A stretch of DNA of 64,000 bases, taken from Cellvibrionaceae bacterium 1162T.S.0a.05 (GTDB lineage: Bacteria > Pseudomonadota > Gammaproteobacteria > Pseudomonadales > Cellvibrionaceae). The stretch spans positions 1,700,392 through 1,764,391 of the forward strand of contig LANB01000001.1 in assembly GCA_000964245.1 (NCBI GenBank). The letters are read 5' to 3'. Shown here in pieces: positions 38,832-63,001 of this stretch. The position numbers and the translations under genes are program-made. Numbering within the stretch: the first letter of the stretch is position 1; every line of letters starts with the position of its first letter. The notes under the pieces were generated by a model. It ran no database searches and was not told where the DNA came from. It saw only the letters and a program-made list of their open reading frames with translations.

Positions 38832-38834
38832 TCT

Positions 38835-45283: not shown

Positions 45284-45360
45284 GCACCCGTAGCTCAGCT
45301 GGATAGAGTAGGTGGCTTCGAACCACTTGGTCGGGAGTTCGAATCTCTCCGGGTGCGCCA
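45284..45360 (+). tRNA. tRNA-Arg (anticodon reads TCG)
   Basis: Manual cloverleaf: 7-bp acceptor stem GCACCCG/CGGGTGC, D-arm GCTC/GAGT, anticodon stem GGTGG/CCACT with loop CTTCGAA, T-arm GGGAG-TTCGAAT-CTCTC, 3' CCA. It is near-identical in architecture to E. coli tRNA-Arg(ACG). Confidence 0.85.
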
Positions 45361-45364
45361 AATA

Positions 45365-45558: not shown

Positions 45559-45569
45559 GATTCCAGGGC

Positions 45570-46361: not shown

Positions 46362-46367
46362 TACCTA

Positions 46368-46703: not shown

Positions 46704-46712
46704 ATTCTACAT

Positions 46713-46804
46713 GCCTTAACAAGCCAAAGCACTATTCGCCGCAAAAAGCGCGGCGCGGACTCGCTACACGTTGTTTCGCTCGCCCGTGTTTGGGGCGTTA
46801 AGGC
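46713..46804 (+). repeat. attC site 1 (92 bp)
   Basis: Inverse core GCCTTAAC-AAGCC at the 5' end and GGGGC-GTTAAGGC at the 3' end form an imperfect palindrome. The next ORF starts 6 bp after the core. Confidence 0.7.
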
Positions 46805-46809
46805 TCACT

Positions 46810-47262: not shown

Positions 47263-47380
47263 CAAGCCGGTGAACTACAGGCAGCAAGCTGCCCCGGACC
47301 TCCACCGCGTGGTTCGCTTATGTGCTTTAATAGCACAACGGAAACAACTCCATTCCGGCCCGTTACCGGAACGTTATGTT
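47256..47380 (+). repeat. attC site 2 (about 125 bp)
   Basis: It begins GCCTTAACAAGCCGG and ends ...CCGGAACGTTATG, with an internal palindromic segment (GGTTCGC / CGGAAC). Confidence 0.5.
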
Positions 47381-47777
47381 TCGAGTAATTTAATCTGCAA
47401 ATGTTTCGCGTAACTAATGAAGTCTTTATCGGTAGTAAAAATATTTAATCTAAGGCGCACAGATACGGCGCAAATTAGAAAATCTGTATGTGAACCCTGA
47501 ACGCCTTTCGCACGGCAAAAATTTGAATACTCAGCAGCACATTCATAATCAGCGTCTAACACTGGCTCATTGGGAAAATACTGGAGTTTTTGTCTGAGCT
47601 TATAGTACTTGTTTTTATCAGAGTACCCAGAGAGCAACTCTTGGCGTATCGGTCCAATTTCCTTACTTGGTTGTCATCTATTATCTGGGATAGCTGGGTC
47701 GCTATAGAGGTCTCTTTGGGGGTGCTGCCTCGTAACGCTAGGGACCAAACGCAAGTATCTACAAGTACCCCGCTCAT
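47374..47777 (-). pseudogene. vapC: PIN-domain toxin VapC, frameshifted (N-terminal ORF 47556-47777 and C-terminal ORF 47374-47637 overlap out of frame)
   Basis: N-terminal LVDTCVWS (PIN Asp motif) and C-terminal TDKDFISYAKHLQIKLLE are split over two frames. The ATG overlaps the vapB stop (ATGA). Confidence 0.6.
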
Positions 47778-47968
47778 TTGCGGCCCTTTTTGTAGTCATA
47801 ATCAGTATCTTGGGGTAGGCTGCCAAATAGAGAAGTTATTTCTCGTTGTTTGCGGCGCTGTACGAACTCCATAAGTGCTTGATTTGCAGTGTCTTTTTTC
47901 GTGGAGAGCCCACTAATTATGAGGGCTTCATTTAATAGTTCAGTATCAATTGAAAGGTTGGTAGCCAT
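47774..47968 (-). CDS. vapB: VapB-type RHH antitoxin
   Basis: MATNLSIDTELLNEALIISG is an Arc/MetJ-type N-terminus. 64 aa. Confidence 0.6.
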   Translation of the reverse strand: MATNLSIDTELLNEALIISGLSTKKDTANQALMEFVQRRKQREITSLFGSLPQDTDYDYKKGRK

Positions 47969-48014
47969 GCTCACACCTCTTGGCACACAAGTATCCACAC
48001 AAAGCGTTACACAA

Positions 48015-48128
48015 AGCTAACAAGGCAGTCAACCTGACGCCGCGTGCTACGTTCAGCTTTGGGATGGCTACGCCATTTTACTCCAAAGCTTCTCTCCACA
48101 CGCAACGCAGGTTACTGCGACGTTAAGA
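48015..48128 (+). repeat. attC site 3
   Basis: AGCTAACAAGGCAG at 5' and CTGCGACGTTAAGAG at 3'. The GTTA overlaps the parE stop codon on the opposite strand. Confidence 0.45.
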
Positions 48129-48425
48129 GTTTTTGAGATTTCTCGCGACGTCCATTCGCTTGTGAAGAATGCGAATTATTTCAATGTGAGAGCCGGAGCC
48201 ATCTTTATAAAAAATAACATGGCTTCCTTGAGGAAATTTTTTATATCCTGGCAAAATGTAATCGCACTTAGCGCCGAGGTCAGGAGATTCAGCTAAAGCA
48301 TGAAAAATTTCATCTAATTGTTTTAGGTATATGTTTCGTTGGTTTCGACCCCACTCTTCTTCAGTGTAAATTGCAATATTCTTTAGGTCTGCTTTAGCTT
48401 TGGCCGTAAGCTTGAAAGGAATCAT
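48123..48425 (-). CDS. parE: ParE/RelE-family toxin
   Basis: 100 aa; the IAIYTEEEWGRNQRNIYLKQLDEIFHALAESPDLG pattern is typical of ParE. Confidence 0.7.
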   Translation of the reverse strand: MIPFKLTAKAKADLKNIAIYTEEEWGRNQRNIYLKQLDEIFHALAESPDLGAKCDYILPGYKKFPQGSHVIFYKDGSGSHIEIIRILHKRMDVARNLKNS

Positions 48426-49421: not shown

Positions 49422-50114
49422 CTAAAGACGACGCACTTTTATATTACGAAACCAGACCTTTTCCCCATGATGTTGAAACATGATATGCCCTTCGCGAGAC
49501 TGGCCGAAGATGGGGTTATCTTTGAATTTACTGTCTTTAATTTTTCTTTTTAATTCATCACTGCCAATAGTAAAATCCAGAACTTTAACGCCATTCAAAT
49601 AATGTGTTACCCGTCCGTTATCAACTACCAAGCGAGCCTCGTTAAACTCACCCCAGGGCCGGACAGCACGACTTGCAGGAGCGATCAGATCATATAAAGA
49701 ACCTGCAGAGCGTTCTGGGTCTTTATCATAGAAATTTACATCATCCTGAATCTGTATTTCGAAATCATTTAGCCAATTGGGGCTATTGCCATTTCCTGAT
49801 TCCATATCGTTAAGTTCTTTAACATGAAAAAATAGCCCGCTGTTTCCTGCTTTTGATACCTTCCAATCGTAAACCAGTTCAAAACTTTCAAATGTATCTC
49901 GCGTTACGATGTCTACGTTGTCTACATCCGAAAGTGTCGCCAGTGTACCGTCCTCGATCGCCCATGCGTTCGCTGGAAACGTCTCCATCCGGTAACCACG
50001 CAATAAACTTGTATCCTGTCCATCAAATAATACAATCCACTTTGGTTCAGCTTGAACTGAATAAACAGACAACATACAGATGAGGCTTAGCAAGCCTTTA
50101 GCTTTATTTATCAT
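49422..50114 (-). CDS. DUF1080 (3-keto-disaccharide hydrolase / LamG-like) secreted protein
   Basis: Signal peptide; the ...GHIMFQHHGEKVWFRNIKV C-terminus is typical of DUF1080. Confidence 0.7.
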   Translation of the reverse strand: MINKAKGLLSLICMLSVYSVQAEPKWIVLFDGQDTSLLRGYRMETFPANAWAIEDGTLATLSDVDNVDIVTRDTFESFELVYDWKVSKAGNSGLFFHVKELNDMESGNGNSPNWLNDFEIQIQDDVNFYDKDPERSAGSLYDLIAPASRAVRPWGEFNEARLVVDNGRVTHYLNGVKVLDFTIGSDELKRKIKDSKFKDNPIFGQSREGHIMFQHHGEKVWFRNIKVRRL

Positions 50115-51406: not shown

Positions 51407-52489
51407 TTAGGGCAGATCAACCACTTCCACCCAGCTTGGATTTTTGCCAACAGCGTAACGAGCCAAATGAGTGAGTTGGCCACTGGATTGATCAATTTTG
51501 TATACGCTCAGATGGTTTGAGAGCTGTCCCGCTGATAGTAAGAACTTTCCATCAGGGCTTAAGGTAAAACTTCGGGGTTTGGTTTCGGTGGGAACGCTTT
51601 CAATCAAGGTCAGGAGACCGCTTTGTTGGTCTCGCTGAAAAACATTGATTGTATTTGTGCGGCGCTCAGAGGTGTAAACAAACTTTCCATTCGGTGTAAT
51701 CTGAATTTCCGCTGCTGAGGGTTTTTCCTTGAAGGGTTTCTTTGCCATGAGAATCGATTGTTTCTCGGTGAGTACACCGCGGGCCTTATCGAAGGCATAA
51801 ACATTGACTGTGCCATCCAGCTCGTTAAGTAGGTACACAAATTTTTGATCTGGTGAAAAGCGTATATGGCGGGGGCCTGACTCCTTAGCTGTTTTAATGC
51901 TGGCAGGAGAGTTCGGGCTCACTTTTCCTGTACTGGCATCGAATTTAAATTGCATGACCTGGTCGCTGCCCTTGTTGGCAACAAAAAGAAATTGGTTGCT
52001 GCTATCAAGCAAGAGTGAGTGCGCATAGAGCCCCGTGGGGTACACACTCACACTTGCTTCCTGTACGAGGCGCTTGTCATCGAGCCTGTTAACCATCAAT
52101 GCGGAACTGCCATAAGAGGTTGTTAATACATTTTTTCCGGAAGTATCGGCGTGTACAAAGCAAATATCGTGGGGAAGCACGGCTTGCGATTGCTCGGTCA
52201 GTTCGCCGTTAGTGGACTGTATTGAAAATGATACGATGGAATAAGGCGTAGAACGAATGGCGGCGTAGAGGGTTTTTTTATCGGGGCTTACCGCGAGGGG
52301 CATAACGGAATCGCCTGCTTTAACGCGTTGCGCTAAATGAAGTTTGCCCGTTTCTTTGTCCATGTTGTAGGCAGCAATTTCACCGTCATCTGCATTGGAA
52401 ACGTATACCATGGTGCGTGCAAGTGATGTATTGCTGAAAAATAAAACCGACAATACAGACAAACAATAGCTAAAAAAAAGTGATTTCAT
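51407..52489 (-). CDS. Lactonase, 7-bladed beta-propeller (6-phosphogluconolactonase/Pgl-like), secreted
   Basis: Signal peptide MKSLFFSYCLSVLSVLFFSNTSLA. Repeated propeller blades (YVSNADDGEIAAYNMDKETGKL...). The start was chosen at the M of MKSLFF. Confidence 0.75.
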   Translation of the reverse strand: MKSLFFSYCLSVLSVLFFSNTSLARTMVYVSNADDGEIAAYNMDKETGKLHLAQRVKAGDSVMPLAVSPDKKTLYAAIRSTPYSIVSFSIQSTNGELTEQSQAVLPHDICFVHADTSGKNVLTTSYGSSALMVNRLDDKRLVQEASVSVYPTGLYAHSLLLDSSNQFLFVANKGSDQVMQFKFDASTGKVSPNSPASIKTAKESGPRHIRFSPDQKFVYLLNELDGTVNVYAFDKARGVLTEKQSILMAKKPFKEKPSAAEIQITPNGKFVYTSERRTNTINVFQRDQQSGLLTLIESVPTETKPRSFTLSPDGKFLLSAGQLSNHLSVYKIDQSSGQLTHLARYAVGKNPSWVEVVDLP

Positions 52490-55451
52490 GATGAACTCTT
52501 CGTTTGGGTATTCTTCACTTAGGCATTTTTTATTTAAAACGTTATTTAGATCTTTATTCAGGAGTGGCCTGATACTTGTTGTATGCAGCGTGGGTATGCA
52601 CCCCTGTTTTGGCGCGTCCTTTGTTGAAACGAGCCCTGACCAGTATACCCAGGACGAAGTGGTCATTTCGGCAGGAGAACGCCTCTACGGCCGCTATTGT
52701 GCAAGTTGTCACTTACTTGAGGGCGAAAGTTTTGGTCCGCAATTGGGCGGCGTTACCCAGGTAGTGTCAACAGAGGACCTGCACGATTTTATTCGCAACC
52801 CGGCCTCGATCATGGCCTCCGGGAATCCACGTGCCTCAGCGTTAATGCAGCGCTACAAAGTCATGATGCCGGGGTTTGATCAGCTTAAGCAGCAAGAAAT
52901 CCAGGCAATTCTGGCCTACATTCACCTGCAATCCAACAAACGTGAAATTGCAGCTCTCACACTGGACGCCATTTTAAATACAGGCAGCCACAAGCGCCTT
53001 CTCCCGCCGGTGGTGCAGTCGGGCATTGTGGTCGAGCTGGAAGAGTTTGCTCGCCTCCCGACCCTGGAAAATCGCCCTGCCTATAAAGGCATTACCTCCA
53101 TGCGTGTGGACCCACGCAGAAAATCAGCGTATTTCGTTAATGAACTTATGGGGATTTTGTATTCTGTAAGGAAGGGCAAGCATGCAGTTTTTCTGGATTT
53201 GCGGCCCCACTTCCCGAAATTTATGTATGAACCGGGCGTGGCCAGTGGGCTCGGTAGTTTTGCGATGCACCCCAACTTTAAAGAAAACGGAATTTTTTAT
53301 ACCACGCACTCGGAAATTCGTCGCGGCTCGCCCGCCATCAATGAAGACGATATACCCGCAGATGTGCCTGAACATGAATCGCCCCCCCTTGAGTGGGTGC
53401 TAAGTGAATGGACTTTAAAGCAACCCGCTGCACCGCACTTTGAAGGCAGCCGACGAGAAGTGTTGCGTTTTGTGACGCCAACCACTGCGCACGGCGCCCA
53501 GGAAATTAAATTTTCGCCCGTGCGTGACCCACATCATCCGGATTACGGCATGCTTTACATCGCTTGTGGTGACGGTGGTGCAATTAATCTAAAACGCCCT
53601 GATATGGCAGGCCATCCGCATACCCTTCTGGGCACGATTATGCGTATTGATCCCGCCGGCACCAATGGTAAAGGCGGTGGTTATGGCATTCCTGAAGACA
53701 ACCCTTTTGCAAACAGTGAAGACCCGATGGTGCACAAGGAAATCTGGGCCTACGGTTTTCGCAACCCTCATCGTTTTTCCTGGGATGCCAAAAAATACAA
53801 ACCGATGATTGCGATTGATATTGGTGAATCCAATATTGAAGAGATCAATATTATTAAAGCCGGTGGTAATTATGGTTGGGGGCAGGGCGGCCTTGAAGGA
53901 ACTATGGCCATCGACCCCATAAAAGACCCGACACAGGTTTCACCAGCGAGTGCTGAACTTTTGCGTCAACATTTATCGCCCTACGGGCAATATGATCACA
54001 ACGATGGCACGGCCATTACGGGGGGCTATATTTACCGTGGCCCACTCAAAGCATTGCAGGGAAAATATATTTTTGGCGATATCGTCAATGGCCGATTGTT
54101 TTATATGAATATGGATGCGCATCAATTTGCCGGTGTGAGGGACAAAACGATTTACGAAATACAAATACAACAAAAGGGCCAGCTCACCAGTGTACGTGAA
54201 ATGTCGCAAGTTGAACGGGCGCATTTACGCCTTGCTTACGATGCAGCTAAAGGCGAACTTTTTATACTGACAAAAGATGACGGACGTATTCGGCGTATTG
54301 TTTCAGCACGTTATAGCGAAGACGCGAAGAGTGATAGTGCGAGTGAAAACACAGCCCATGCCCAAATAAAAGGAAAAGAAAAAGAAAAAACAAAAACCTT
54401 CGGCATCCACAGTGAAACTTTTGGTTTAAATGAAGCTGGCGAAATGGTCACGCAATACAGCCTCACCAACAAACAAGGTAGCCAGGTCAATATCATTGAT
54501 TACGGCGCAACAGTAGTTTCGCTTTTTGTTCCCGACCGTAAGGGGAACTTGGCCGACGTGGTAATAGGCTACGACAACATGCCGGACTATGAACAGCGCA
54601 GTCACAATTTTGGCTCCACCATTGGACGCGTTGCCGGGCGCATTGCGAATGCGCAATTTGAATTGGACGGCAAACGTTATCAACTACCGAAAAATTTGGG
54701 TGAGCATACACTTCACGGTGGCCCGCAAGGTTTTGATAAAGTGATGTGGCATATGACGGAGCAAAGTTATACCAGCGAAGGTGCAACACTGACATTGCGC
54801 TATGAAAGTGCAGATGGTGAAATGGGTTTTCCCGGTAACTTGATTGCTTATGTCAGTTATACCTTTACGGAAGACAATGCTCTAAAAATACAGTATTCCG
54901 CCACCAGCGATAAGCCGACACCCTACAACCCCACCCATCACAGTTATTTCAATTTAAAGGGGGAGGGCAAGGGCAATATTTTTGATCACAGCCTACAAAT
55001 TTTTGCTTCAAAAACGCCTGCCACGCTCAATGTTTTTCCGACAGGCGAGATTAAAAATATAGAAGGCAGTGTGCTGGATTTTCGACGCCCCACATTGATT
55101 GGAAAGCGTATTCTCGACCCGAGCCTGGAAGCACGAAGAGGTTACAATGATTTTTATATTTTCGATAAGGTCGGCGATGAGCTTGCGCACGTGGCGACCC
55201 TGGCGGAAGAAAAAAGTGGGCGCAAAATGGAAGTGTGGACAACCGAGCCTGGCTTGCAACTCTACACCGGGAATTGGTTGAATGATCAATTAGTGGGTAA
55301 AAGTGGTGTGCCCTACGTGCAGTATGGCGGTGTGTGTTTGGAAGCGCAGCACTACCCGGATTCACCCAACCAGCCCTTGTTTCCCGATACGATTTTAAGG
55401 CCAGGTGAAAAATTTGAATCGACAACGGTTTATAAATTTTCAGCGCGATAA
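52488..55451 (+). CDS. Tri-domain periplasmic oxidoreductase: cytochrome c, PQQ-dependent (soluble) sugar dehydrogenase beta-propeller and aldose 1-epimerase (mutarotase)
   Basis: CASCH heme motif. An sGDH-like region (GLGSFAMHPNF...GGNYGWGQGG). The C-terminal galactose-mutarotase fold has VCLEAQHYPDSPNQ. The exact start is uncertain, since the annotated start overlaps the divergent lactonase start. Confidence 0.7.
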   Translation: MMNSSFGYSSLRHFLFKTLFRSLFRSGLILVVCSVGMHPCFGASFVETSPDQYTQDEVVISAGERLYGRYCASCHLLEGESFGPQLGGVTQVVSTEDLHDFIRNPASIMASGNPRASALMQRYKVMMPGFDQLKQQEIQAILAYIHLQSNKREIAALTLDAILNTGSHKRLLPPVVQSGIVVELEEFARLPTLENRPAYKGITSMRVDPRRKSAYFVNELMGILYSVRKGKHAVFLDLRPHFPKFMYEPGVASGLGSFAMHPNFKENGIFYTTHSEIRRGSPAINEDDIPADVPEHESPPLEWVLSEWTLKQPAAPHFEGSRREVLRFVTPTTAHGAQEIKFSPVRDPHHPDYGMLYIACGDGGAINLKRPDMAGHPHTLLGTIMRIDPAGTNGKGGGYGIPEDNPFANSEDPMVHKEIWAYGFRNPHRFSWDAKKYKPMIAIDIGESNIEEINIIKAGGNYGWGQGGLEGTMAIDPIKDPTQVSPASAELLRQHLSPYGQYDHNDGTAITGGYIYRGPLKALQGKYIFGDIVNGRLFYMNMDAHQFAGVRDKTIYEIQIQQKGQLTSVREMSQVERAHLRLAYDAAKGELFILTKDDGRIRRIVSARYSEDAKSDSASENTAHAQIKGKEKEKTKTFGIHSETFGLNEAGEMVTQYSLTNKQGSQVNIIDYGATVVSLFVPDRKGNLADVVIGYDNMPDYEQRSHNFGSTIGRVAGRIANAQFELDGKRYQLPKNLGEHTLHGGPQGFDKVMWHMTEQSYTSEGATLTLRYESADGEMGFPGNLIAYVSYTFTEDNALKIQYSATSDKPTPYNPTHHSYFNLKGEGKGNIFDHSLQIFASKTPATLNVFPTGEIKNIEGSVLDFRRPTLIGKRILDPSLEARRGYNDFYIFDKVGDELAHVATLAEEKSGRKMEVWTTEPGLQLYTGNWLNDQLVGKSGVPYVQYGGVCLEAQHYPDSPNQPLFPDTILRPGEKFESTTVYKFSAR

Positions 55452-55754
55452 AAATCGACAAGGAATCTGAACCGTACTCTGCCGGTTGCGAATGTTTCTC
55501 GTTATCAATTGGCTAGGTCTTGCCTGTGCGCTGTTTGTGCGTCCACCTTGAAAGACATCCATTTTTGTTATGCCTCCGTATACTTTTATGAGCCTAAGCC
55601 AGTTGTCCTGGCTCCATACGGTGTTAAAGGGTGGCCGAAACGCGCATTCACTGGTATTTGCGGGCGATTTTGCCCCTGGTTACTGCTAGCGGCAGCATTT
55701 GCCGCTATAATTCAGCCACAAATTTTGAACTGACTGATTCTTAAGGTGAATTAC

Positions 55755-56153
55755 ATGAAAAAAGTGTCCTGGTTGGCGCTAGCAGTTGTGGCTTTGGCGT
55801 CATTTGCCTCGGCGGAAACGGTTGAAGATCGTATCAAGCCAGTGGGTTCTGTCTGTATGGCAGGCGATGATTGTGCTTCGGGCGCAATACAGTTGGCTGC
55901 GGCTGACGGCCCTCGTAGTGGTGAAGATGTGTATAAGAAAGCGTGTACAACCTGTCACGCAGCAGGTATTGCCGGCGCACCCAAGTTGGGTGATGTGGCG
56001 GCATGGGCGCCTCGCATCGAGAAAGGTATTGATGTGCTGTACACCAGCGCGATCAAGGGTTTGAACGGGATGCCTGCGAAAGGTATGTGTTTTGACTGTT
56101 CTGACGACGAGCTGAAGGCATCCGTTGATTATATGGTGGAAAACTCCAAATAA
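55755..56153 (+). CDS. Cytochrome c5-family monoheme cytochrome
   Basis: RBS AGGTG, signal peptide, CTTCHAAG heme-binding motif. Confidence 0.8.
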   Translation: MKKVSWLALAVVALASFASAETVEDRIKPVGSVCMAGDDCASGAIQLAAADGPRSGEDVYKKACTTCHAAGIAGAPKLGDVAAWAPRIEKGIDVLYTSAIKGLNGMPAKGMCFDCSDDELKASVDYMVENSK

Positions 56154-56177
56154 GCGTAACGTGTCAGATGAATTGCA

Positions 56178-56207
56178 AACGGGGGCCTTGGCCCCCGTTT
56201 TTGTTTT
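56178..56207. terminator. Bidirectional intrinsic terminator
   Basis: AAACGGGGGCC-tt-GGCCCCCGTTT with a TTTTGTTTTT run. It lies between convergent genes. Confidence 0.7.
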
Positions 56208-56227
56208 TGAGGTCTCTGTTTTCGTCT

Positions 56228-57466
56228 TTACTGGAAGAGTGTGAGGTCTACGGCACTTCCCATAATGACGTAGCCATTTTCATTCGGGTGCAAATGATCA
56301 CCGGTATCACCATCCGCCCGCAGTAAACCGGGTTGTTCGGGGTCGGTCATAACGGCTTCGAAATCGATCACTGCATCAAACTCGCCACTGTTTCGAATCC
56401 AGCTATTGACCGTGCGCCAGGCGTCGAGTCGTTCAGGTGTATCGTAAAAGGAGGTGGCAAAGGGCAACAGGGTTGCGCCATAAACCTTGATGTTGGCAGC
56501 ATGCGCCTGGTTGATCATACTTTGATAGGCGGCAATTAACGCATCAGCAATTTTTTCGGCGTCTTCGGCATTTTTTGCCTGGCCGATATCATTTATGCCT
56601 TCAAAAATAATCAGCCATTTCACACCTGCCTGATTCAGCACATCGCGCTCGAAGCGGTCCAGTGCCGAAGGCCCCAGACAAGCGCGGGTAACGCAGTTGC
56701 CACCAATTCCCTGATTAATGACCGCAATGTTTTGTGTGTTCGCATTCGCGCGTAATTTTTCGGCAAAAATATCGGGCCAACGATTTTGTTTGTTTGTGCC
56801 CGATCCGCGTCCATCGGTAATTGAATCACCGAGCACGACCACGGCCGCTGCATTTTCCGGCGCTTGCACTTCAATACCCGTTACAACATACCAGCGGTCT
56901 GCCGTAACCTGCGTACTCAAATCCGCAGCATTGAGTTGATTACCCTCAGCAATATAAGACGTTGTGCGGGAGCCGGGGTGGCCGGTAACATCTTTTGAGG
57001 TTTCAGCGAAATAAATATTAATTGCAACGGTTGAACCAGCTTGGAGATTAAAATCCAAAGGGTCTGATACGTGCTCACTACCGGGAGCCATCGTAATGGC
57101 TTCCGCACCCGAAAATAAAACGGGTCTCGCTGTTTGTGGATCAATCTCACCGGCGTGTCGATGTTGCGCGATACTGACTTTTTGTAGTGTCACGGGCTCA
57201 CTGCTGAAGGCATTTGAAAAGCGCAAGCGGATGTGATCTCCACCTTGCGTAACGCGAACGATACTGCGCAAGGTATTGTTGCTGAGGCCGGGCTCGGGTG
57301 GCATGTTGTGAGGCTCAACCAGTTGGGGCCCGGTGCTCCAGGTAGCGAGCCATTGTGTGGCTGCGGTGTCTTTTTCTGTTGGCGCGTTATCGTTGGTACA
57401 CGCACCAAGCAGTAAAAGCATTGCCAGGGAACAGCAATACAGGTGGAGTTTAAAAGAATTTGTCAT
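56228..57466 (-). CDS. Secreted SGNH/GDSL-family hydrolase with an N-terminal beta domain
   Basis: Signal/lipobox LLLGACT. The GDSITDG block (VVVLGDSITDGRG) and the C-terminal DxxH (DTGDHLHPN) are present. Confidence 0.7.
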   Translation of the reverse strand: MTNSFKLHLYCCSLAMLLLLGACTNDNAPTEKDTAATQWLATWSTGPQLVEPHNMPPEPGLSNNTLRSIVRVTQGGDHIRLRFSNAFSSEPVTLQKVSIAQHRHAGEIDPQTARPVLFSGAEAITMAPGSEHVSDPLDFNLQAGSTVAINIYFAETSKDVTGHPGSRTTSYIAEGNQLNAADLSTQVTADRWYVVTGIEVQAPENAAAVVVLGDSITDGRGSGTNKQNRWPDIFAEKLRANANTQNIAVINQGIGGNCVTRACLGPSALDRFERDVLNQAGVKWLIIFEGINDIGQAKNAEDAEKIADALIAAYQSMINQAHAANIKVYGATLLPFATSFYDTPERLDAWRTVNSWIRNSGEFDAVIDFEAVMTDPEQPGLLRADGDTGDHLHPNENGYVIMGSAVDLTLFQ

Positions 57467-57531
57467 GTGCTTCCCCCTATCATTTATTGTTGCTTTTTAT
57501 TTTGCTTTTTCGATTTATTTTCAGAGGTTCC

Positions 57532-60297
57532 CTAGTTGTGCTCATTACCGGAAAGCAAAGTAAAGCCGGTGATAATAAACAGCGCTTTGTCGGCATTTTT
57601 ATCATCGTTTCTGAAAATAAAGGTGAGTTTGTGTTGGCCTTGTTGTTGATTAATCGCAATGGTTTTACTGAAGCCTCTGCCAGCAATATCCTTCGCATCA
57701 AAGTACGCCGTCTTGCCGAGTAGTGTGCCGTGTTCATCACCAAGTCGAAGTTCAATATACCCCCCCACAGTAAATTCCGGGTCAGCATTACCGTGAATGT
57801 GTAATCCGCTTACACCGTTTAAATCCATTTCCGGGAATTGTAGAAAAGCGCCATCTTTAAGCCCCACTTTAAGTGAAATAGGTGGGTCAGATACTGTAAG
57901 GAAATTAATTTCCTTTTCGGCAATGATTTCATTTGCATCAATGTAGGGGTTGTCCAGTGTCAGGGTTTTTTCTGTTTTAATTGAAGGTAAGTCCCCGGCA
58001 CCCTTGTCTTCATACGCAGCGCGTAAAATGACTGTGCCATCGCGTGCAATAATGTCTTCTTGCTTAATGGTGTATTCGCCCGCTAAGGGAAGAGGGATAC
58101 CGATTTTTTCTTCATCTACTGCGAGAATATATTTCACTGCAAGGCGGGCCTCAACGACGCTCATATCCTGATGGGGCGGCATCGCCGTTTCGCCCCACAC
58201 ACCGCTGCCACCCTGAATAATTTTATCGACCAGGTGGGCCTGGGCGTTGAGCGTGTTTTTATCGTTGTTCTCTTTGTAGTAGCGCGCAATATCCACATAG
58301 CTTGGCCCAATCGACGCCCCGTGTTTTTTGTGGCACGCGGTGCAGTCGCTTTGGCTTATGACTTTTTCTCCGGCAGACATATTGGCTGCGTTTTCTGCTG
58401 CAAGATGCCCTTGTTGAATATCAACCTTATCGAAACCGACAGGAAGAAAATCGAGCGTGAGTGCAACGTCCTCTGCTTTTACGTCACCGTCTTCACTATC
58501 ACTCACACGCGCTTGATAACGAATGGGGGTATTCGGGAAAAAGAACATACTGTTGCCCTCAACAATATCAAGATGCACTTCCGGTGGGCTGTTCCCCGCT
58601 AACAGTTCAAAACTTGTTTGACTATGTGCTGCATGCTGATCTGTCACGGTGAGCAAGGCTTGATACTGTCCGGCTTGTGTCAGACGATAGTGAAAATCTT
58701 TTTCGCTGCTTTCGGCAATGGCTTGGCCTTCTGCGTTTTTAATTTGCCAGAGATAGCTCAGTTGATCGCCATCGGGGTCGGTACTGCCTTCAGCACTTAA
58801 GGACACCTCAAAAGGGAGGGCGCCGTGTTGCGCAGCCAGCGTCGCGCGCGCCACGGGGTTGCGATTACCTTGAATGTAGTCGACGCGCACGATACGCGCA
58901 TCGGCATTTGGCTGAAACCAGGCACGACCGTACTCAAGAATATAAAGGCTGCCGTCGGGGCCGAATAACATATCGACCGGTGCACTGAAAGACATCTCCG
59001 GCAAAAAACGTTGCATGGAAACGTAGTCACCACTTTCACTTAGCGTGACAGTATTGACCCAGCCGCGCATCCATTCGTAAATAAATAATTTATTGTCGAA
59101 CCAGGCGGGAAAGGGCGAGGGCTGGTCTGCATAAAACTGATGACGATAGACCGGCCCTGCCATTGCGGTACGGCCACCTTTGCCTAGCTCGGGGAAGGAA
59201 GATGATTTCGCATAGGAATACCAGATAAACGCACCTTGTGCCGGTGGCAAGCTTTGCAAGCCGGTGTTATTCGGTGAATTGTTTATTGGTGTGTGTGGAT
59301 TAAAATTTCCAAGGGATTTTTTTGTTGCAAAATCAAATTCTGCATAGGCCTGATTGTCGCCAATAAAATAGGGCCAGCCAAAAAAACCGGGTTCGCGTAA
59401 TTGATTGATTTCATCGTAACCTATAGGTCCCTTTTCTTTTATTAGGCGGCTCGCATCCGGGCCGACATCGCCCCAATACAGATAGGATGTAACGGGGTCG
59501 ATTGAAATGCGATAGGGGTTGCGCACACCCATTGCGTAAATTTCCGGGCGGGTATTGGCGGTTCCAGGAGGGAAAAGATTACCTTCTGGAATGGCGTAGC
59601 TGCCGTCAGCGAGTGGCAATATGCGCAGAATTTTTCCACGTAAATCATTGGTGTTGGCTGAGCTTTTTTGTGCATCCCAGGGTGAGCGCCCGGGGCGTTC
59701 ATCAATGGGGGCGTAGTGCGAGGCGTGTGGGTTGGTATTGTCACCCGTTGATAGATACAGGTGGCCTTCACGGTCGAATTCTATCGCGCCGCCGGTATGG
59801 CAACACTGCTCGCGTTGCACGGGGACTTCCAAAACACGTTTTCCGGAGCCTGCTTGCAAGGCATCGTTTTTAAATGTCCAGCGCGTTAGGACGTTAACGG
59901 GTTTATCGCCTGCCAGTGAATAATACAAATACAACCAGCCGTTAGTGGCAAAGTTCGGGTCTAGCGCGAGGCCGAGGAGTCCGTCTTCGGAGCCGCCGCC
60001 GTCGACAAGTGTTGTGTTCACGTCAAGGCTATGAATGGTCTTTATTTTTTGAATTTTTGGATCGAGTAAGCGAAGCCTGCCAGTGCGCTCTATAAACAGA
60101 ATGCGCCCATCGGGCAAGATATCGAATTCGAGTGGCTCATTGAGATTGTTTGCCAGAACCTTGACTTGAAAACGGCTGGGGTCGGGAGCTGATGTCTGGT
60201 CTGTAACCGCAGCTGAATTTTCGTTGGTGGAATTCGAGTCTGTTTGCGTGCACGCTACCAACAGCAACGCTGTGGCGAGAGAGGAAAATATTTTCAC
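57532..60297 (-). CDS. Multi-domain PQQ-dependent sugar dehydrogenase: beta-propeller, PKD-like, cytochrome c, and a C-terminal carbohydrate-binding-like domain
   Basis: Lipoprotein signal. The sGDH-like propeller (GDVGPDASR...EINQL) is followed by a PKD-like segment (LSAEGSTDPDGDQLSYLW) and the heme motif CTACH. Confidence 0.7.
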   Translation of the reverse strand: MKIFSSLATALLLVACTQTDSNSTNENSAAVTDQTSAPDPSRFQVKVLANNLNEPLEFDILPDGRILFIERTGRLRLLDPKIQKIKTIHSLDVNTTLVDGGGSEDGLLGLALDPNFATNGWLYLYYSLAGDKPVNVLTRWTFKNDALQAGSGKRVLEVPVQREQCCHTGGAIEFDREGHLYLSTGDNTNPHASHYAPIDERPGRSPWDAQKSSANTNDLRGKILRILPLADGSYAIPEGNLFPPGTANTRPEIYAMGVRNPYRISIDPVTSYLYWGDVGPDASRLIKEKGPIGYDEINQLREPGFFGWPYFIGDNQAYAEFDFATKKSLGNFNPHTPINNSPNNTGLQSLPPAQGAFIWYSYAKSSSFPELGKGGRTAMAGPVYRHQFYADQPSPFPAWFDNKLFIYEWMRGWVNTVTLSESGDYVSMQRFLPEMSFSAPVDMLFGPDGSLYILEYGRAWFQPNADARIVRVDYIQGNRNPVARATLAAQHGALPFEVSLSAEGSTDPDGDQLSYLWQIKNAEGQAIAESSEKDFHYRLTQAGQYQALLTVTDQHAAHSQTSFELLAGNSPPEVHLDIVEGNSMFFFPNTPIRYQARVSDSEDGDVKAEDVALTLDFLPVGFDKVDIQQGHLAAENAANMSAGEKVISQSDCTACHKKHGASIGPSYVDIARYYKENNDKNTLNAQAHLVDKIIQGGSGVWGETAMPPHQDMSVVEARLAVKYILAVDEEKIGIPLPLAGEYTIKQEDIIARDGTVILRAAYEDKGAGDLPSIKTEKTLTLDNPYIDANEIIAEKEINFLTVSDPPISLKVGLKDGAFLQFPEMDLNGVSGLHIHGNADPEFTVGGYIELRLGDEHGTLLGKTAYFDAKDIAGRGFSKTIAINQQQGQHKLTFIFRNDDKNADKALFIITGFTLLSGNEHN

Positions 60298-60442: not shown

Positions 60443-60970
60443 TTATTGCCGTTCGCTGCTCTCAAGAATAACAACTTTCCTGCCTTGGCGTTCGCTGTGG
60501 TGCTTTTGCGTTTTTTGTTGCGCAAGTGTCTTTCCAGCCTGAATGAGCCCAACCTGAACGGGCCCAACCTGAATGGGTAATTCGAAAACACGCCGGAGCT
60601 CACGGCCACTGGTATCAACAGTGGAGACATGGATTCCGATATAGTGTTTACCATTTTGTACCGCAGTCACTTGCAGTGGCAGACTGGATGTATGTGCGTC
60701 GAAGTCACCTTTCTGTATTTGCAGGCCTGCAGGTGTATGGATTTTCACATCGAATTTCAGGATGTCCTCGGCTTTCCGAAATGTCAGTAACAGCTGTTCG
60801 AGCTCGCCGATGTCACTCCGGCCATCGTAGTTGTGGCTGAACGCTACATTTGCACCGGGCTTTTCCATGCGGCCTTCATCGTGGGCGTGGACAAACCAGG
60901 CGCTGACGATCAGGGCGAAACTTAATGTTGCCTTTGAAAAATGTGCGGATAGGGATTTGACGTTTTTCAT
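60443..60970 (-). CDS. Secreted hypothetical protein
   Basis: Signal peptide. The PIQVGPVQVGLIQAG tail is encoded by a 15-bp tandem duplication. Confidence 0.4.
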   Translation of the reverse strand: MKNVKSLSAHFSKATLSFALIVSAWFVHAHDEGRMEKPGANVAFSHNYDGRSDIGELEQLLLTFRKAEDILKFDVKIHTPAGLQIQKGDFDAHTSSLPLQVTAVQNGKHYIGIHVSTVDTSGRELRRVFELPIQVGPVQVGLIQAGKTLAQQKTQKHHSERQGRKVVILESSERQ

Positions 60971-60988: not shown

Positions 60989-63001
60989 CTAGTTGCTGCT
61001 CATGCTGACATTAAAGCAAACGTTGCCACCGCCACTTTCGTTGTCGTAGTTGCTGGCTTCCCACACAATAATTAAACCCGGGCCGGCGTTATACACACGG
61101 GTCAACTCTTCATTATTTTGCTGTGAACCATCGGCGATACCGAAAAGGGCACCTTCTTGCATGAACCAAAAATCCGGATCGGAACCTGTCATGCCGGAAC
61201 TGCGCACGACATTAATGTCGTAACTGCCAAGACTGGGAACATCGACGCGAATGTAATTGGCATTCCCCAATTTGTTGTACTCGCCTCCAGTGTTGGTGCT
61301 GCAAACGGTTGTCGCGGCACCATCGACAGTCAGGCTGTGGTAGATCGGGAGGGCAATGCTCACTCCGCCATCGTTGCTTTCGCTGCTGCCATAAATATCG
61401 CTGAGCGTAAAACCATGTTCACTGGCAAGTTGATCGACGACAGATACGAGGCCGGTATTTTGCGCTTTTAGAATTGAACCGAATGTGTGAACACTGGTGA
61501 GTGCGGCTGTGTTCACGTAGTCATCGCTCGCCAGGGTATTAAACATCGCAGCAAAATTATTCGCGCCGGCCTGGTGAATGGCGTACACAAAGGCATGCAC
61601 TGAGGCTTCATTAAACCAGCCGGGGTTGGCGTTACTGCCTTCAGACACATCGAAAACGAAGCCCACTGACTGGGAACTTCCGGATGAATCCCGGTATTCA
61701 GGATCATTCAATGACATCGCAGCAAAGGCATTGGCATAACCCTCACCAAAGGCCACCCGCATATCCAACTCTTCTGACAGTGTGTGCGTGCCGCCAATGG
61801 AATCGGAGCGGAAAACGTTGTAATCCAGGTAGTGGCCAAACTCATGCGTAACAACGTGGCGATCATATTCATCGGTGTCGTTGTTGGCGGAGCCGAGGAG
61901 GTAAATGGCGTTGTCACCACTGAAAAAGTGACTGTTGCCGATATCACCATCGGCATTCGCGCCCGGCGTTGCGCGGTTATTCGGGCTCCAGAAAATATCC
62001 ATCGCGGGCAATACGATATCCGGATCTGCTTGCTGAATAATACTCAGGCTTTCGTAGACGGCATCCAGGATGGCGAAAGGCGCGGCAGAGCGTGTACCTG
62101 TATAGGCATTGACCCCGTTCCAGCCGGAACTGGCGTGCAAGTGTCGTTCGGAATTTTCAGTGCCCGAGGACGCGAGTGTGCCTTGAATCGCATAAAGGGC
62201 ATTGCCGTCGGTATTGTCGCCAACTTCGATATCCCAGGCGGGGCTATCACTTTGCATGGACGCATAAGCGCGAATACGCACATTGGTTTCGGCATCAACA
62301 ATCACGCTGTAGGCCCCCGCGCTGTCAGTCACAGTAGACGCAAGAACCTGGTCGGACGCATTCAAGGCTTCAACCACAATACCGCGCGCTGGCGCTTCGA
62401 TGGTGGCGTTGTAGTTCAAACCATTGGTGAATTCATTGTGTGGGACCAAATCAAAGGTGATGGTGCCGGAAATGGCCACACTGCTCCCCGTCAGTACTTT
62501 GCTTACGTTGGAAACAATAGTCTGGCCGACATTGCCCGCGCTGTCGGCGAGCTGTAGGGCGATTTGTATCTGGCCCTCGGCAAAACTACTGAGATCGAGG
62601 GTTTCGGTGATTTCTGCTGAAGTCACGACGGCGTTATTGGACGCTGTGCCTGTAGCGCTGTCGCTCCAGCTCAAGGTGTAGGTCGCACCGACTTCCAGAC
62701 CTGTGAGCGTCACATCAAAGCTGCTTTGGTTGCTCTCGCTCACCACGGCGTTCTCCGGCGTCAGTTCATATCCGCTGGGTGCGGTTGTATCGGCCCCGCC
62801 GGAGCTTGAACTGGCGCTGGAGCTGGAACTGCTGCTTGAACTACTGCTGGAAGCGCTTGAGGCGCTGCTGCTTGATGTTGCACTGGATGCCGAACTTGAG
62901 GAAGACGACGAACCACCGCTATCGTCGCCACCGCCGCCGCACGAGGCTAAAAATAAACTGAAAACAAGCAGAGAATAGGGTGCAAACCTGAATGACAACA
63001 T
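60989..63001 (-). CDS. Secreted/lipoprotein zinc metalloprotease (HEFGH) with an N-terminal polyserine linker
   Basis: Lipobox LASCGGGG. About 45 consecutive Ser/Ala residues. HExxH (VVTHEFGHYLD) is present. Confidence 0.6.
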   Translation of the reverse strand: MLSFRFAPYSLLVFSLFLASCGGGGDDSGGSSSSSSSASSATSSSSASSASSSSSSSSSSSSASSSSGGADTTAPSGYELTPENAVVSESNQSSFDVTLTGLEVGATYTLSWSDSATGTASNNAVVTSAEITETLDLSSFAEGQIQIALQLADSAGNVGQTIVSNVSKVLTGSSVAISGTITFDLVPHNEFTNGLNYNATIEAPARGIVVEALNASDQVLASTVTDSAGAYSVIVDAETNVRIRAYASMQSDSPAWDIEVGDNTDGNALYAIQGTLASSGTENSERHLHASSGWNGVNAYTGTRSAAPFAILDAVYESLSIIQQADPDIVLPAMDIFWSPNNRATPGANADGDIGNSHFFSGDNAIYLLGSANNDTDEYDRHVVTHEFGHYLDYNVFRSDSIGGTHTLSEELDMRVAFGEGYANAFAAMSLNDPEYRDSSGSSQSVGFVFDVSEGSNANPGWFNEASVHAFVYAIHQAGANNFAAMFNTLASDDYVNTAALTSVHTFGSILKAQNTGLVSVVDQLASEHGFTLSDIYGSSESNDGGVSIALPIYHSLTVDGAATTVCSTNTGGEYNKLGNANYIRVDVPSLGSYDINVVRSSGMTGSDPDFWFMQEGALFGIADGSQQNNEELTRVYNAGPGLIIVWEASNYDNESGGGNVCFNVSMSSN

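Follow-up and report, generated by a model that had tools for sequence, protein, structure and literature searches.

Of the five adjacent genes at the centre of this analysis, four probably belong to two independent modules that flank the fifth, cytochrome c5, and its tRNA-Arg/c5/rep backbone in the window (the whole 64,000-nucleotide stretch analysed, from Cellvibrionaceae bacterium 1162T.S.0a.05): module A for periplasmic aldose oxidation and module B for xylan-linked sugar oxidation. Module A is a conserved unit of a lactonase gene and a tri-domain gene, the latter a fusion of neighbouring cytochrome c-propeller and mutarotase genes; module B is a separate conserved pair, a gene for a 921-aa lipoprotein and an esterase gene. 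All ORFs were found at the coordinates given in the earlier note, and the features are collected in Table 1.

Table 1. Features of the two modules and the surrounding backbone (positions in the window).
Feature	Position	Strand	Basis or detail
tRNA-Arg(TCG), edge of variable region holding module A	45284..45360	+	ARAGORN
Exported DUF1080 / 3-keto-disaccharide-hydrolase-like protein	49422..50114	-	Pfam PF06439, E 5e-43
Exported 7-bladed lactonase, 360 aa from Met60 of listed ORF	51407..52489	-	Pfam PF10282
Gene for the 987-aa tri-domain protein (signal peptide, then cytochrome c, sGDH-type propeller, linker and aldose 1-epimerase)	52488..55451	+	
Long Sec signal peptide (predicted), aa 1-43, ...LILVVCSVGMHPCFGA/S	52488..52616	+	inferred from sequence reading
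Class I monoheme cytochrome c domain, aa 61-146	52668..52925	+	Pfam PF00034/PF13442
Six-bladed GSDH/sGDH-type propeller, aa ~165-607, presumed PQQ site	52980..54308	+	Pfam GSDH
Hydrophilic Lys/Glu/Ser-rich linker, aa 608-650	54309..54437	+	alignment with unfused homologues
GalM-type aldose 1-epimerase domain, aa 651-987	54438..55448	+	Pfam, NF008277
Cytochrome c5, housekeeping respiratory carrier	55746..56153	+	full-length match to 8SMR_L
Strong palindromic terminator-like hairpin between c5 gene and convergent esterase gene	56177..56200		10-bp stem, 7 GC pairs, T-run
FjoAcXE-type acetyl-(glucurono)xylan esterase, lipoprotein, CBM-like N-domain and SGNH	56228..57466	-	
921-aa lipoprotein: GSDH propeller, PKD, cytochrome c, CBM6-like domain	57532..60297	-	
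C-terminal CBM6-like domain, aa ~745-921, weak assignment	57535..58065	-	sub-threshold Pfam CBM_6
c551/c552-type monoheme cytochrome c domain, aa 639-727, CTACH at 652, Met706	58117..58383	-	Pfam
PKD domain, aa 478-562	58612..58866	-	Pfam PKD_4/PKD
Propeller of 921-aa protein, aa ~40-475	58873..60180	-	hhalign, AF2, Foldseek

The lactonase belongs to PF10282 (E 8e-83), with YbhE/6PGL and the periplasmic gluconolactonase PpgL (6IGB) among its PDB matches. In the listed ORF the true start codon is that of Met60, and the resulting N-terminus, MKSLFFSYCLSVLSVLFFSNTSLA, looks by eye like a signal peptide; on the same by-eye inspection, a signal peptide or lipobox is predicted for five of five proteins. 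The tri-domain gene corresponds to an NCBI product of 986 aa (P0241) from the same genome; with the alternative start at Met37, chosen by MetaClust (P0001), the c-type cytochrome would have no export signal. Pfam places Cytochrom_C at aa 61-146 (E 3e-11), GSDH at aa 250-591 (E 1.6e-24) and Aldose_epim, with the whole profile covered, at aa 656-983 (E 7.9e-87), values far past chance expectation. The single CxxCH of the protein is CASCH (C71-H75, encoded at 52698-52712), the axial ligand is Met127 (52866-52868), and C71, C74, H75, M127 and P128 are invariant across 23 homologues; the best PDB matches of this domain are ACIII ActA and a Rhodothermus cytochrome c. The epimerase domain scores 299 bits against NF008277 (cut-off 240), matches human GALM (1SNZ) at E 3.5e-77 and aligns its H743, H818 and E952 with H96, H170 and E304 of the L. 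lactis enzyme. It carries N887 where L. lactis has D243, an exchange shared by its mutarotase clade and a point against the proposed function. Profile analysis thus bears out the earlier reading of the C-terminal domain as a real mutarotase with its catalytic His/His/Glu, and domain annotation bears out that of the 987-aa and 921-aa proteins as sGDH-type propellers each joined to a monoheme cytochrome c.

The lactonase and the dehydrogenase gene are divergently paired at seven independent loci, and the pairing is shared with L001, L002, L004, L008, L090 and L091, so the partnership suggested for lactonase and fusion gene stands. Separate genes in the order lactonase, divergent cytochrome c-GSDH, mutarotase are found at L008 (4-bp overlap between the latter two), L090 (3-bp gap) and L091 (1-nt overlap), and in DG1235 (L004) the mutarotase gene lies 2.8 kb downstream. 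The parts co-vary in identity (lactonase 57-59%, the range for the L001 and L008 copies; dehydrogenase 57-62%; mutarotase 60-65%, with 62% to the standalone DG1235 mutarotase), and dehydrogenases and mutarotases give roughly congruent trees. Neither a mutarotase nor a lactonase lies near the more distant cytochrome c-GSDH homologues at L006 and L007.

Could the tri-domain ORF be an assembly or sequencing artefact that unites two neighbouring genes? This lineage is represented by one genome only, and a single indel could join genes that in relatives abut or overlap by 1-4 nt. The junction, however, is a 35-aa hydrophilic linker rather than a stop codon followed by a hydrophobic signal peptide: unfused dehydrogenase homologues stop at about residue 612 of the tri-domain protein, the closest standalone mutarotases have signal or lipoprotein leaders, and in the fused gene the linker stands where that stop codon and leader would be. 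A fused orthologue (59-61% identity) was moreover recovered from two separate metagenome assemblies (L001/L002), and a third, unrelated fused protein (P0312) has its domains in the same order, around a propeller of the canonical Asd type with canonical PQQ motifs, which makes an artefact extremely improbable. In the tree the window protein and the L001 fusion are not sisters, and their linkers measure about 35 and about 8 aa; the fusion arose at least three times independently. The architecture is indeed rare, as had been supposed, but every part of it is of a known kind.

Both propellers would use PQQ, as their fold and partly conserved active-site residues suggest. The 987-aa propeller matches sGDH (1C9U) with an hhalign probability of 98%, its AF2 model has pLDDT 89 and pTM 0.90, and its top Foldseek matches are the PQQ sugar dehydrogenases 3A9G, 7CDY, 1C9U and 2ISM together with HHIP. 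For the 921-aa propeller the hhalign probability against sGDH is 99.6% (AF2 pLDDT 79.5, pTM 0.86), with sGDH and Asd as top Foldseek matches. For the earlier PQQ assignment speak the catalytic His and an Arg-Asn pair, which both propellers possess, but several sGDH PQQ-binding residues are not conserved. In the 987-aa propeller, H335, R425 and N426 align with sGDH H144, R228 and N229; Gln246, Pro248 and Lys377 have no equivalents, and R581 corresponds to R408 by manual motif alignment only, the C-terminal part of the alignment being unreliable. The 921-aa propeller keeps C165-C166-H167 (the His144 equivalent), R259/N260 and G290/P291 and lacks equivalents of R406/R408. The two proteins score 28 and 81 bits against TIGR03606 in NCBIfam (cut-off 434.55).

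Partial conservation of the sGDH PQQ ligands also suits a reading in which one or both propellers rely on a cofactor other than PQQ (a different quinone, or a metal) or do no redox chemistry (binding, or a lactonase-like activity), with the cytochrome serving some other purpose. The 987-aa propeller is structurally equidistant, non-enzymatic HHIP being as near as Asd; no pqq or pqqU gene lies within the window; and the propeller of Teredinibacter turnerae TERTU_3803, which carries a PQQ glucose dehydrogenase annotation, showed neither PQQ binding nor activity (PMC10916295). Against this, the catalytic His and Arg-Asn pair are invariant within both propeller families, the Coprinopsis cinerea pyranose dehydrogenase CcPDH is PQQ-dependent although it lacks several bacterial PQQ ligands (PMC4133262), the independent P0312 fusion retains canonical PQQ motifs, and a fused heme domain with a recurrent mutarotase and lactonase link makes sense only with an aldose oxidoreductase. 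We consider a non-PQQ role unlikely.

In module B, the 921-aa protein contains GSDH (E 2.9e-36), PKD (E 7e-8) and a cytochrome domain whose PDB matches are cytochromes c-552/c-551 (E 3e-11); its CBM_6 match is sub-threshold (E 0.002; 18.7 bits, where the cut-off is 28.9), and precomputed annotation places PF03422 on most of its homologues. Most of these homologues also have an N-terminal ThuA domain; the family is very large, and the window protein is one of its members without ThuA. The lipoboxes LLLVAC and LLGAC, read by eye, mark it and the esterase as predicted lipoproteins. The SGNH esterase, which the earlier note had counted in the sugar-oxidation chain, aligns end to end with PbeAcXE (467 bits to 7TOG, 458 bits to 7TOJ), and its N54, R167, S215, R220, D390 and H393 correspond to PbeAcXE N26, R139, S188, R193, D363 and H366, so that the substrate-binding residues are conserved; the motif is GDSI, not GNSI, and H53 replaces R25, an exchange that is tolerated (PMC9105624). 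Its close homology to characterised glucuronoxylan acetylesterases of the FjoAcXE type puts it outside the lactone pathway, and its gene is co-inherited with that of the 921-aa protein (69% and 74% identity for the pair at L003), not with the lactonase module.

The esterase points to xylan-derived substrates for module B, but the 921-aa protein, perhaps with its whole family, could instead oxidise the secondary hydroxyls (C2/C3) of glycosides in a 3-keto-glycoside route with DUF1080/ThuA partners, or act as a CDH/PDH-like donor to LPMOs on polysaccharide surfaces, and so make no lactone. The ThuA domains of its homologues fit such a role, as does the nearest ThuA-bearing homologue (L092), whose neighbours are DUF1080 and ThuA genes rather than xylan genes; a DUF1080 protein is present in the window, though 7.4 kb from module B and inside the other insert. 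The combination of catalytic domain, cytochrome and CBM resembles the CcPDH layout, module B has no paired lactonase, and the R406/R408 equivalents are missing. On the other side, no LPMO or 3-keto-processing gene adjoins module B, the propeller fold is nearer sGDH/Asd (TMt 0.6-0.8) than AA12 (0.54-0.58), and a lipoprotein anchor is no proof of surface exposure. We hold C2/C3 oxidation or LPMO donation to be rather doubtful and retain xylan-linked sugar oxidation for module B.

The small cytochrome between the modules matches c5 of the P. aeruginosa bc1-cbb3 supercomplex over its full length (8SMR chain L, E 2e-31). The earlier proposal of a self-contained periplasmic chain can be read as uniting it with both dehydrogenases, the lactonase and the esterase in one co-evolved system, with c5 as dedicated acceptor and the esterase acting on the products. 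The five genes are physically adjacent, a class I heme domain could plausibly hand electrons to c5, co-transcription is possible since the stretch from the fusion gene to c5 has no terminator-like site, and CxxCH multi-domain genes stand immediately upstream of c5 in two other Cellvibrionaceae loci (L010, L012). Synteny nevertheless largely refutes a single chain, which we regard as very improbable. The c5-rep adjacency recurs in about 45 loci without the dehydrogenases, so c5 is a housekeeping gene whose location beside the modules is coincidental; heme proteins lie upstream of c5 in just two of 13 related loci, module orthologues occur without c5 at L001, L003, L004, L008, L090 and L091, and the esterase is a xylan acetylesterase. 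The closest relative, L010, shares the tRNA-Arg/c5/rep backbone and lacks both modules, and at L010 and L013 the tRNA-Arg adjoins c5. Modules A and B are lineage-specific inserts around c5, and c5 is a possible electron acceptor but one not specific to the cluster. An integrase fragment (45570-46004) and a toxin ORF lie near the tRNA-Arg, and GC content is 40-42% across 46-52 kb. The DUF1080-like protein encoded there is possibly related to the dehydrogenases.

Several known systems resemble parts of these modules. Both propellers share with sGDH (A. calcoaceticus, 1C9U) and Asd (E. coli/archaeal, 2G8S, 3A9G) the six-bladed fold, the His144 and Arg228-Asn229 equivalents, a periplasmic location and an expected aldose oxidation at C1; identity is only 16-23%, with several PQQ and Ca ligands replaced, and whereas sGDH and Asd have no fused cytochrome or mutarotase and pass electrons to free acceptors, the 987-aa protein has both fused. 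Type II quinohemoprotein alcohol dehydrogenases (e.g. 1YIQ) likewise join a PQQ propeller covalently to a class I heme c for intramolecular electron transfer (PMC6472588), but they are eight-bladed, carry the cytochrome C-terminally and act on alcohols; the list in that 2018 review includes no heme c-bearing enzyme with a six-bladed sGDH-type propeller. Engineered sGDH/Asd-cytochrome fusions for direct electron transfer (e.g. PMC12011955) also have a built-in heme relay; they are man-made, whereas the 987-aa protein is natural and adds a mutarotase. The 921-aa protein has the layout of CcPDH (AA8 cytochrome b, AA12 PQQ propeller, CBM1) in one secreted chain (PMC4133262, PMC4332668, PMC5960967), which differs in its heme b, its fungal origin and its AA12 propeller, a weaker fold match to those of the window; as a counterpoint for module B, fungal AA12 enzymes act at C2/C3, not C1 (PMC4133262). 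The esterase shares the catalytic triad and MeGlcA-binding Arg139 with FjoAcXE, PbeAcXE and CspAcXE (7TOG-7TOK; PMC9105624), and differs in its lipoprotein leader and in having a propeller-cytochrome gene as partner instead of lying in a Bacteroidota PUL. TERTU_3803 and Cellvibrio japonicus Cbp2D are also multi-domain Cellvibrionaceae proteins with c-type cytochrome domains and CBMs (PMC10916295, PMC8981238), the former with a propeller that bears a PQQ dehydrogenase annotation (PMC10916295); their propeller (PF08450-X173) and cytochrome (X183) families are different, and the propeller did not bind PQQ.

A functional parallel to module A is the set of Pseudomonas Gcd and PpgL (6IGB) and the exported Acinetobacter mutarotase, in which anomer equilibration, PQQ-linked aldose oxidation and lactone hydrolysis are all periplasmic and the lactonase is of the same Pfam family; there the dehydrogenase is an eight-bladed membrane protein reducing ubiquinone, and the three genes are unfused and unclustered. 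The beta-anomer is the form used by sGDH, and A. calcoaceticus exports its mutarotase to the periplasm. We propose that the C-terminal mutarotase domain of the tri-domain protein would equilibrate the anomers of free reducing sugars released in the periplasm, and that the propeller would oxidise the preferred anomer at C1 with presumed PQQ and metal and His335 as general base. The two electrons would pass one by one through the N-terminal heme c to soluble or anchored cytochromes (c5 or c4) and on to a terminal oxidase, while the divergently encoded lactonase would hydrolyse the aldonolactone. The tri-domain protein originated when abutting cytochrome c-propeller and mutarotase genes fused and the hydrophilic linker replaced the mutarotase signal peptide. 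In this lineage, the 921-aa lipoprotein of module B would most likely oxidise xylan-derived sugars or oligosaccharides and deliver the electrons to its own heme.

The 987-aa gene product was described in the earlier note as a fusion of a cytochrome c, a propeller of the type found in the soluble PQQ glucose dehydrogenase (sGDH) of Acinetobacter calcoaceticus and an aldose 1-epimerase, and matches in Pfam, NCBIfam and the PDB bear out this make-up. The cytochrome c domain (aa 61-146) has a single CASCH at 71-75 and an invariant Met127-Pro128, and thus the CxxCH motif (C71-H75), distal Met (M127) and cytochrome c fold of a class I c-type cytochrome. A start at Met37, as called in MetaClust, was rejected because the export signal needed by a c-type cytochrome would be lost; the export signals of this protein, the 921-aa lipoprotein, the lactonase, the cytochrome c5 (c5) and the SGNH esterase were read by eye. 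The start codons of the divergent lactonase and fusion genes overlap (CATG, 52487-52491), as do those of the fused locus L001 of another genome, by about 14 nt (its positions 9833-9846), and four unfused loci have 168-259 bp of intergenic DNA between the lactonase and cytochrome c-propeller genes. In the window and in L001, the promoters must be embedded in the adjacent coding sequence unless the starts have been wrongly assigned. A scan with the 987-aa protein gave no match in a genome collection from which the source genome and its close kin are absent.

Features of the window around the two dehydrogenase genes
Feature	Position	Strand	Remarks
tRNA-Arg(TCG)	45284-45360	+	10.4 kb upstream of c5, opposite orientation
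Tyrosine integrase, C-terminal fragment	45570-46004	-	ORF after tRNA-Arg
ParE/RelE-like toxin ORF	48123-48425	-	after integrase fragment
DUF1080 / 3-keto-disaccharide-hydrolase-like protein	49422-50114		exported, 230 aa
PF10282 lactonase	51407-52489	-	exported; true start Met60 of listed ORF
987-aa ORF	52488-55451	+	cytochrome c, GSDH-type propeller, full-length aldose 1-epimerase
Cytochrome c5	55746-56153	+	
921-aa ORF	57532-60297	-	lipobox LLLVAC, GSDH propeller, PKD, c551/c552-type cytochrome c, C-terminal domain
175-aa exported protein	60443-60970		no family match
670-aa lipoprotein	60989-63001		long Ser-rich linker, HEFGH zinc-protease motif

The C-terminal domain of the fusion stands as a mutarotase under profile analysis. 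It covers positions 2-299 of the 299 in Pfam PF01263 (E 8e-87), scores 299 bits against the galactose-1-epimerase subfamily NF008277 (cut-off 240) and matches human GALM (1SNZ, E 3.5e-77); its 314 bits against the equivalog TIGR02636 lie below the cut-off of 398. The equivalents of His96, His170, Glu304 and Arg71 of the L. lactis enzyme are kept as H743, H818, E952 and R718, and the substrate-positioning Asp243 is replaced by Asn887 (GYND, 55146-55148). The motif GYN(H/N)YY is common to all close mutarotases linked with a cytochrome c-propeller (P0391-P0396, with GYNHNF in P0396), and more distant mutarotases retain GYDHNW, so the Asp-to-Asn exchange may mark a changed sugar specificity in this clade. 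The neighbouring lactonase scores 279 bits against PF10282, above threshold, and 293 bits against the equivalog 6-phosphogluconolactonase NF008258, for which the cut-off is 370; its export signal argues for a periplasmic, non-phosphorylated lactone as the probable substrate, as with PpgL.

Among 5.8 billion proteins searched, hundreds of cytochrome c-propeller proteins of about 580 aa match the window protein with 50-64% identity; the family accounts for 916 matches among the scored candidates, and all named matches belong to Verrucomicrobiota (Opitutaceae and relatives). In that search the epimerase is carried only by the window protein and one other cluster, P0002, whose called start is truncated; its ORF extends upstream through a CVSCH motif and a leader peptide, and P0002 is therefore also tri-domain. 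Beside the closest unfused homologues a precursor order is found, consisting of a divergent lactonase gene, the cytochrome c-propeller gene and then a separate mutarotase gene, the last two overlapping by 4 nt in locus L008 and by 1 nt in L091 and lying 3 nt apart in L090; in Verrucomicrobiia DG1235 (L004) the mutarotase gene is 2.8 kb downstream. The partnership of lactonase and tri-domain gene that had been proposed is thus strengthened by its recurrence in these four loci. The window mutarotase domain is 62% identical to the standalone DG1235 enzyme, about equal to the dehydrogenase part, the window lactonase shares 57-59% identity with its L001 and L008 counterparts, and the dehydrogenase and mutarotase parts give roughly congruent trees. 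The shared gene order, similar identities and congruence indicate that the three functions travel together.

In this clade the standalone mutarotases begin with a signal or lipoprotein leader, and in the window fusion the leader is replaced by a 35-aa linker rich in Lys, Glu and Ser. This hydrophilic linker and the fact that two separate metagenome assemblies contain the other fused form speak against the tri-domain ORF being a sequencing artefact. L001 groups with the unfused homologues P0003 and P0004, the window protein branches below this whole group, and the linkers differ in length (about 35 aa in the window protein versus about 8 aa in L001); judged from the tree and linkers, the two fused proteins do not form a sister pair. 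A third fused case, P0312, emerged from an exhaustive HMMER scan of 1.84 billion representatives; it combines, in the order seen in the other two, a cytochrome c, a canonical propeller of the aldose sugar dehydrogenase (Asd) type (GSDH 388 bits, HRHPQG and EHGP motifs) and a mutarotase. From these comparisons we conclude that the cytochrome c-propeller-mutarotase order arose at least three times. Mutarotases are also fused to GH127, GH2, pectate lyase, a Gfo/Idh/MocA dehydrogenase and a solute-binding protein (in P0384, P0270, P0273, P0374 and P0348), and their fusion to sugar-handling enzymes, i.e. built-in anomer conversion, appears to be a recurrent design. Our literature searches, in which journal coverage was incomplete, returned no paper describing a mutarotase-PQQ dehydrogenase fusion.

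Both propellers match Pfam GSDH (PF07995) above its cut-off of 25, with 87 bits for the 987-aa and 126 bits for the 921-aa protein, and both were modelled with good scores by AF2 (pLDDT 89 and pTM 0.90; pLDDT 79.5 and pTM 0.86, respectively). The best Foldseek matches of both models are solved PQQ sugar dehydrogenases (3A9G, 1C9U, 2ISM and 7CDY); for the 987-aa propeller HHIP, a non-enzymatic propeller protein, scores as well as these enzymes. Since phmmer and profile searches against the PDB aligned only the central blades of the 987-aa family, family profiles were aligned by hhalign with an sGDH reference identical to 1C9U over all 454 residues; in this global alignment the C-terminal third of the 987-aa propeller is unreliable, and the Arg408 and Lys377 positions were assigned by manual motif alignment.

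Equivalents of sGDH cofactor and catalytic residues in the two propellers
sGDH	987-aa protein	921-aa protein
His144	H335	H167, after invariant vicinal Cys165-Cys166
Arg228/Asn229	R425/N426	R259/N260
Gln231	H428	Tyr
Gln246	I445	K289
Gly247	G446	G290
Pro248	E447	P291
Lys377	Val (manual alignment)	Met
Arg406/Arg408	H579/R581 (manual motif alignment, poorly aligned C-terminus)	no equivalents

The equivalents of His144 and Arg228-Asn229 are invariant in the 32 sequences of the 987-aa family and the 28 of the 921-aa family. The fold, the catalytic base and the Arg-Asn pair support an assignment of both propellers as sGDH-like oxidoreductases. The PQQ-binding residues that the earlier note had expected are found in part: this His and Arg-Asn pair are present in both proteins, but several other PQQ/Ca ligands are replaced or absent, the set Gln246, Gly247, Pro248, Lys377, Arg406 and Arg408 being incomplete in each. 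Against NCBIfam TIGR03606 (non_repeat_PQQ) the proteins score 28.4 (987-aa) and 80.6 bits (921-aa), below the cut-off of 434.55. In the 921-aa family two invariant adjacent Cys (QREQCCHTGG; aa 165-167 including the His, 59797-59805) just precede the catalytic-His equivalent, and the pair is kept across the whole ThuA/GSDH/cytochrome family. It is reminiscent of the eight-bladed methanol dehydrogenases, in which a disulfide between vicinal Cys stacks on PQQ. No PQQ supply genes were found within the 64-kb window, and a 627-aa TonB receptor considered as PqqU was rejected as B12-like. The pyranose dehydrogenase of Coprinopsis cinerea (CcPDH, AA12) is PQQ-dependent although it lacks several bacterial ligands (PMC4133262), which indicates that the sGDH ligand set is not universal. 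PQQ did not bind to a Teredinibacter propeller that carries a PQQ dehydrogenase annotation (PMC10916295). Membership of AA12 itself was rejected on fold ranking: AA12 structures (E 5e-9 to 6.5e-7 for the 987-aa and 1e-11 to 6e-11 for the 921-aa propeller, TMt 0.50-0.58) fall below all sGDH, Asd and HHIP matches in Foldseek.

For the 921-aa protein, Pfam matches and motifs agree with the proposed sGDH-type propeller, PKD domain and monoheme cytochrome c, the last having the CTACH at 652 (C652-H656) and distal Met706 of class I. For the carbohydrate-binding-like domain that had been described, CBM6 matches the C-terminal domain only below threshold, although most homologues carry PF03422. The adjacent SGNH esterase is a lipoprotein that aligns end to end with PbeAcXE (7TOG, 467 bits) and CspAcXE (458 bits), characterised enzymes that strip the 3-O-acetyl group from MeGlcA-substituted xylose (PMC9105624). 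It has the two-domain CBM-like plus SGNH architecture, the Ser-Asp-His triad (S215, D390, H393) and the MeGlcA-binding residues Arg139, Asn26 and Arg193 as R167, N54 and R220; the Arg25 position of PbeAcXE is His, a substitution permitted by its authors (PMC9105624), and at the catalytic Ser the sequence reads GDSI (GDSITDGRGSG) in place of the proposed family signature GNSI. In locus L003 homologues of the esterase (74% identity) and the 921-aa protein (69%) are likewise adjacent, and upstream of them are genes for a CBM15-containing regulator, an esterase, a TonB receptor and a halogenase-like protein; the two genes are thus co-inherited. The wider family (ThuA/propeller/cytochrome/CBM6) has more than 8000 matches, usually with an N-terminal ThuA domain, and its nearest ThuA-bearing member to the 921-aa protein (L092) adjoins a ThuA protein and a 1106-aa DUF1080 / 3-keto-disaccharide-hydrolase-like protein; a DUF1080 protein is likewise encoded in the window (49422-50114). 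Our best guess is that the module B substrate in this lineage is xylan-derived, with C1 or C2/C3 as the oxidised position. Literature searches for a ThuA-GSDH-cytochrome or bacterial AA12-cytochrome c protein returned no characterised example.

The earlier note had taken five genes, c5 among them, as one unit, and synteny contradicts this. The c5 protein is homologous over its full length to c5 from the P. aeruginosa bc1-cbb3 supercomplex (8SMR_L, E 2e-31) and also matches 1CC5; it has C67-H71 with M109 and a C-terminal Cys-x-x-Cys (CFDC). Scanning species-representative genomes with c5 placed the window in Cellvibrionaceae (best matches 78%, 69% and 61%), and about 45 loci in these genomes, from Cellvibrionales and Pseudomonadales, have c5 and rep facing each other convergently. 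In the closest relative, L010 (78% in c5, 88% in rep), the histidine kinase, c5, the 175-aa and 670-aa genes and rep are retained, the lactonase and fusion genes (module A, 51407-55451) and the esterase and 921-aa genes (module B, 56228-60297) are both missing, and other genes stand between the kinase and c5. The conserved c5 synteny and the gene content of L010 indicate that modules A and B are separate lineage-specific inserts flanking a housekeeping c5; the 175-aa and 670-aa genes, conserved beside rep in L010, are part of the backbone rather than of the dehydrogenase modules. A tRNA-Arg(TCG) lies directly upstream of c5, on the other strand, in L010 and L013, and the window DNA beyond its own tRNA-Arg is 40-42% GC; the stretch 45284-48425 resembles a cassette region or genomic island in decay. 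That heme-fusion genes precede c5 is not a general rule, as only two of the 13 related loci, both from other Cellvibrionaceae, show it: L010 has PKD-cytochrome c proteins with PSD/PSCyt3 (planctomycete-type) domains and DUF1552 (2972-9272), and L012 has an 828-aa GSDH plus cytochrome c protein (7412-9898). No terminator was found between the fusion gene and c5. A role as dedicated partner was rejected on synteny, the position of c5 being no evidence of a dedicated link to the fusion gene; it is a reasonable downstream electron acceptor.

Two other regions of the window were annotated. A TonB-dependent receptor (Xanthomonas/Caulobacter type, 623 bits), two tryptophan-halogenase-like genes, SapC, a cupin_8 gene and DUF6445 lie at 8357-17177, which we take to be a typical gammaproteobacterial glycan-uptake gene set; a similar receptor and halogenase pair precedes the 921-aa homologue in L003. 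At 33513-40387 the gene of a 1772-aa DUF3686/DUF7902/AAA ATPase precedes those of a rhomboid protease and a protein with a PLD-like nuclease fold; this group may be a defence or repair module and is unrelated to the dehydrogenases.

We propose that in module A the mutarotase would equilibrate the anomers of a free periplasmic aldose, the propeller would oxidise C1 of the preferred anomer and pass electrons to the fused heme c and then to respiratory cytochromes, and the exported lactonase would open the resulting lactone; the cofactor (PQQ), the oxidised position (C1), the sugar and the acceptor are all inferred. The beta-anomer is the form used by sGDH, anomers interconvert slowly on their own, and a mutarotase is exported by Acinetobacter. 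In its working the combination parallels the periplasmic glucose-oxidation route of Pseudomonas and Acinetobacter and the type II quinohemoprotein dehydrogenases, and it resembles man-made sGDH-cytochrome fusions. In module B the lipoprotein would dock via its CBM-like domain and oxidise xylan-derived sugars once the partner esterase has deacetylated them, in a layout that mirrors fungal CcPDH. The parts of both modules are thus of known kinds. A bolder joint reading, which we consider improbable, makes the 921-aa lipoprotein a polysaccharide-docked bacterial counterpart of fungal CDH or AA12 pyranose dehydrogenase, its cytochrome relaying electrons from xylan-derived sugars to redox partners, for example AA10 LPMOs, outside the cell or in the periplasm, and the tri-domain protein the first natural direct-electron-transfer sGDH with built-in anomer supply; if true, the electron-generating reaction still missing from bacterial LPMO systems in Cellvibrionaceae would be provided by the 921-aa protein.

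No six-bladed enzyme with heme c is listed in a 2018 review of cytochrome-bearing PQQ enzymes (PMC6472588). A 2026 preprint, in the passages covered, predicts that six-bladed PQQ proteins form complexes with c4 and c551 cytochromes encoded by separate genes, and mentions neither heme-fused nor mutarotase-fused forms. Our literature searches turned up no characterised enzyme of natural origin in which a six-bladed (sGDH-type) PQQ dehydrogenase is fused to a c-type cytochrome; such sGDH-cytochrome fusions have been built by hand by engineers for third-generation glucose sensors. Should the propellers turn out not to use PQQ, the finding would shrink to an annotation caveat. The cytochrome c-propeller and ThuA/propeller/cytochrome/CBM6 proteins make up large uncharacterised families, and module B ties the second of these propeller-cytochrome groups to a glucuronoxylan-specific acetylesterase. 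For the first, the repeated independent fusion of a mutarotase and the conserved exported lactonase imply that cytochrome c-propeller proteins would act in the periplasm on free aldoses, oxidising their anomeric carbon in an anomer-selective manner.
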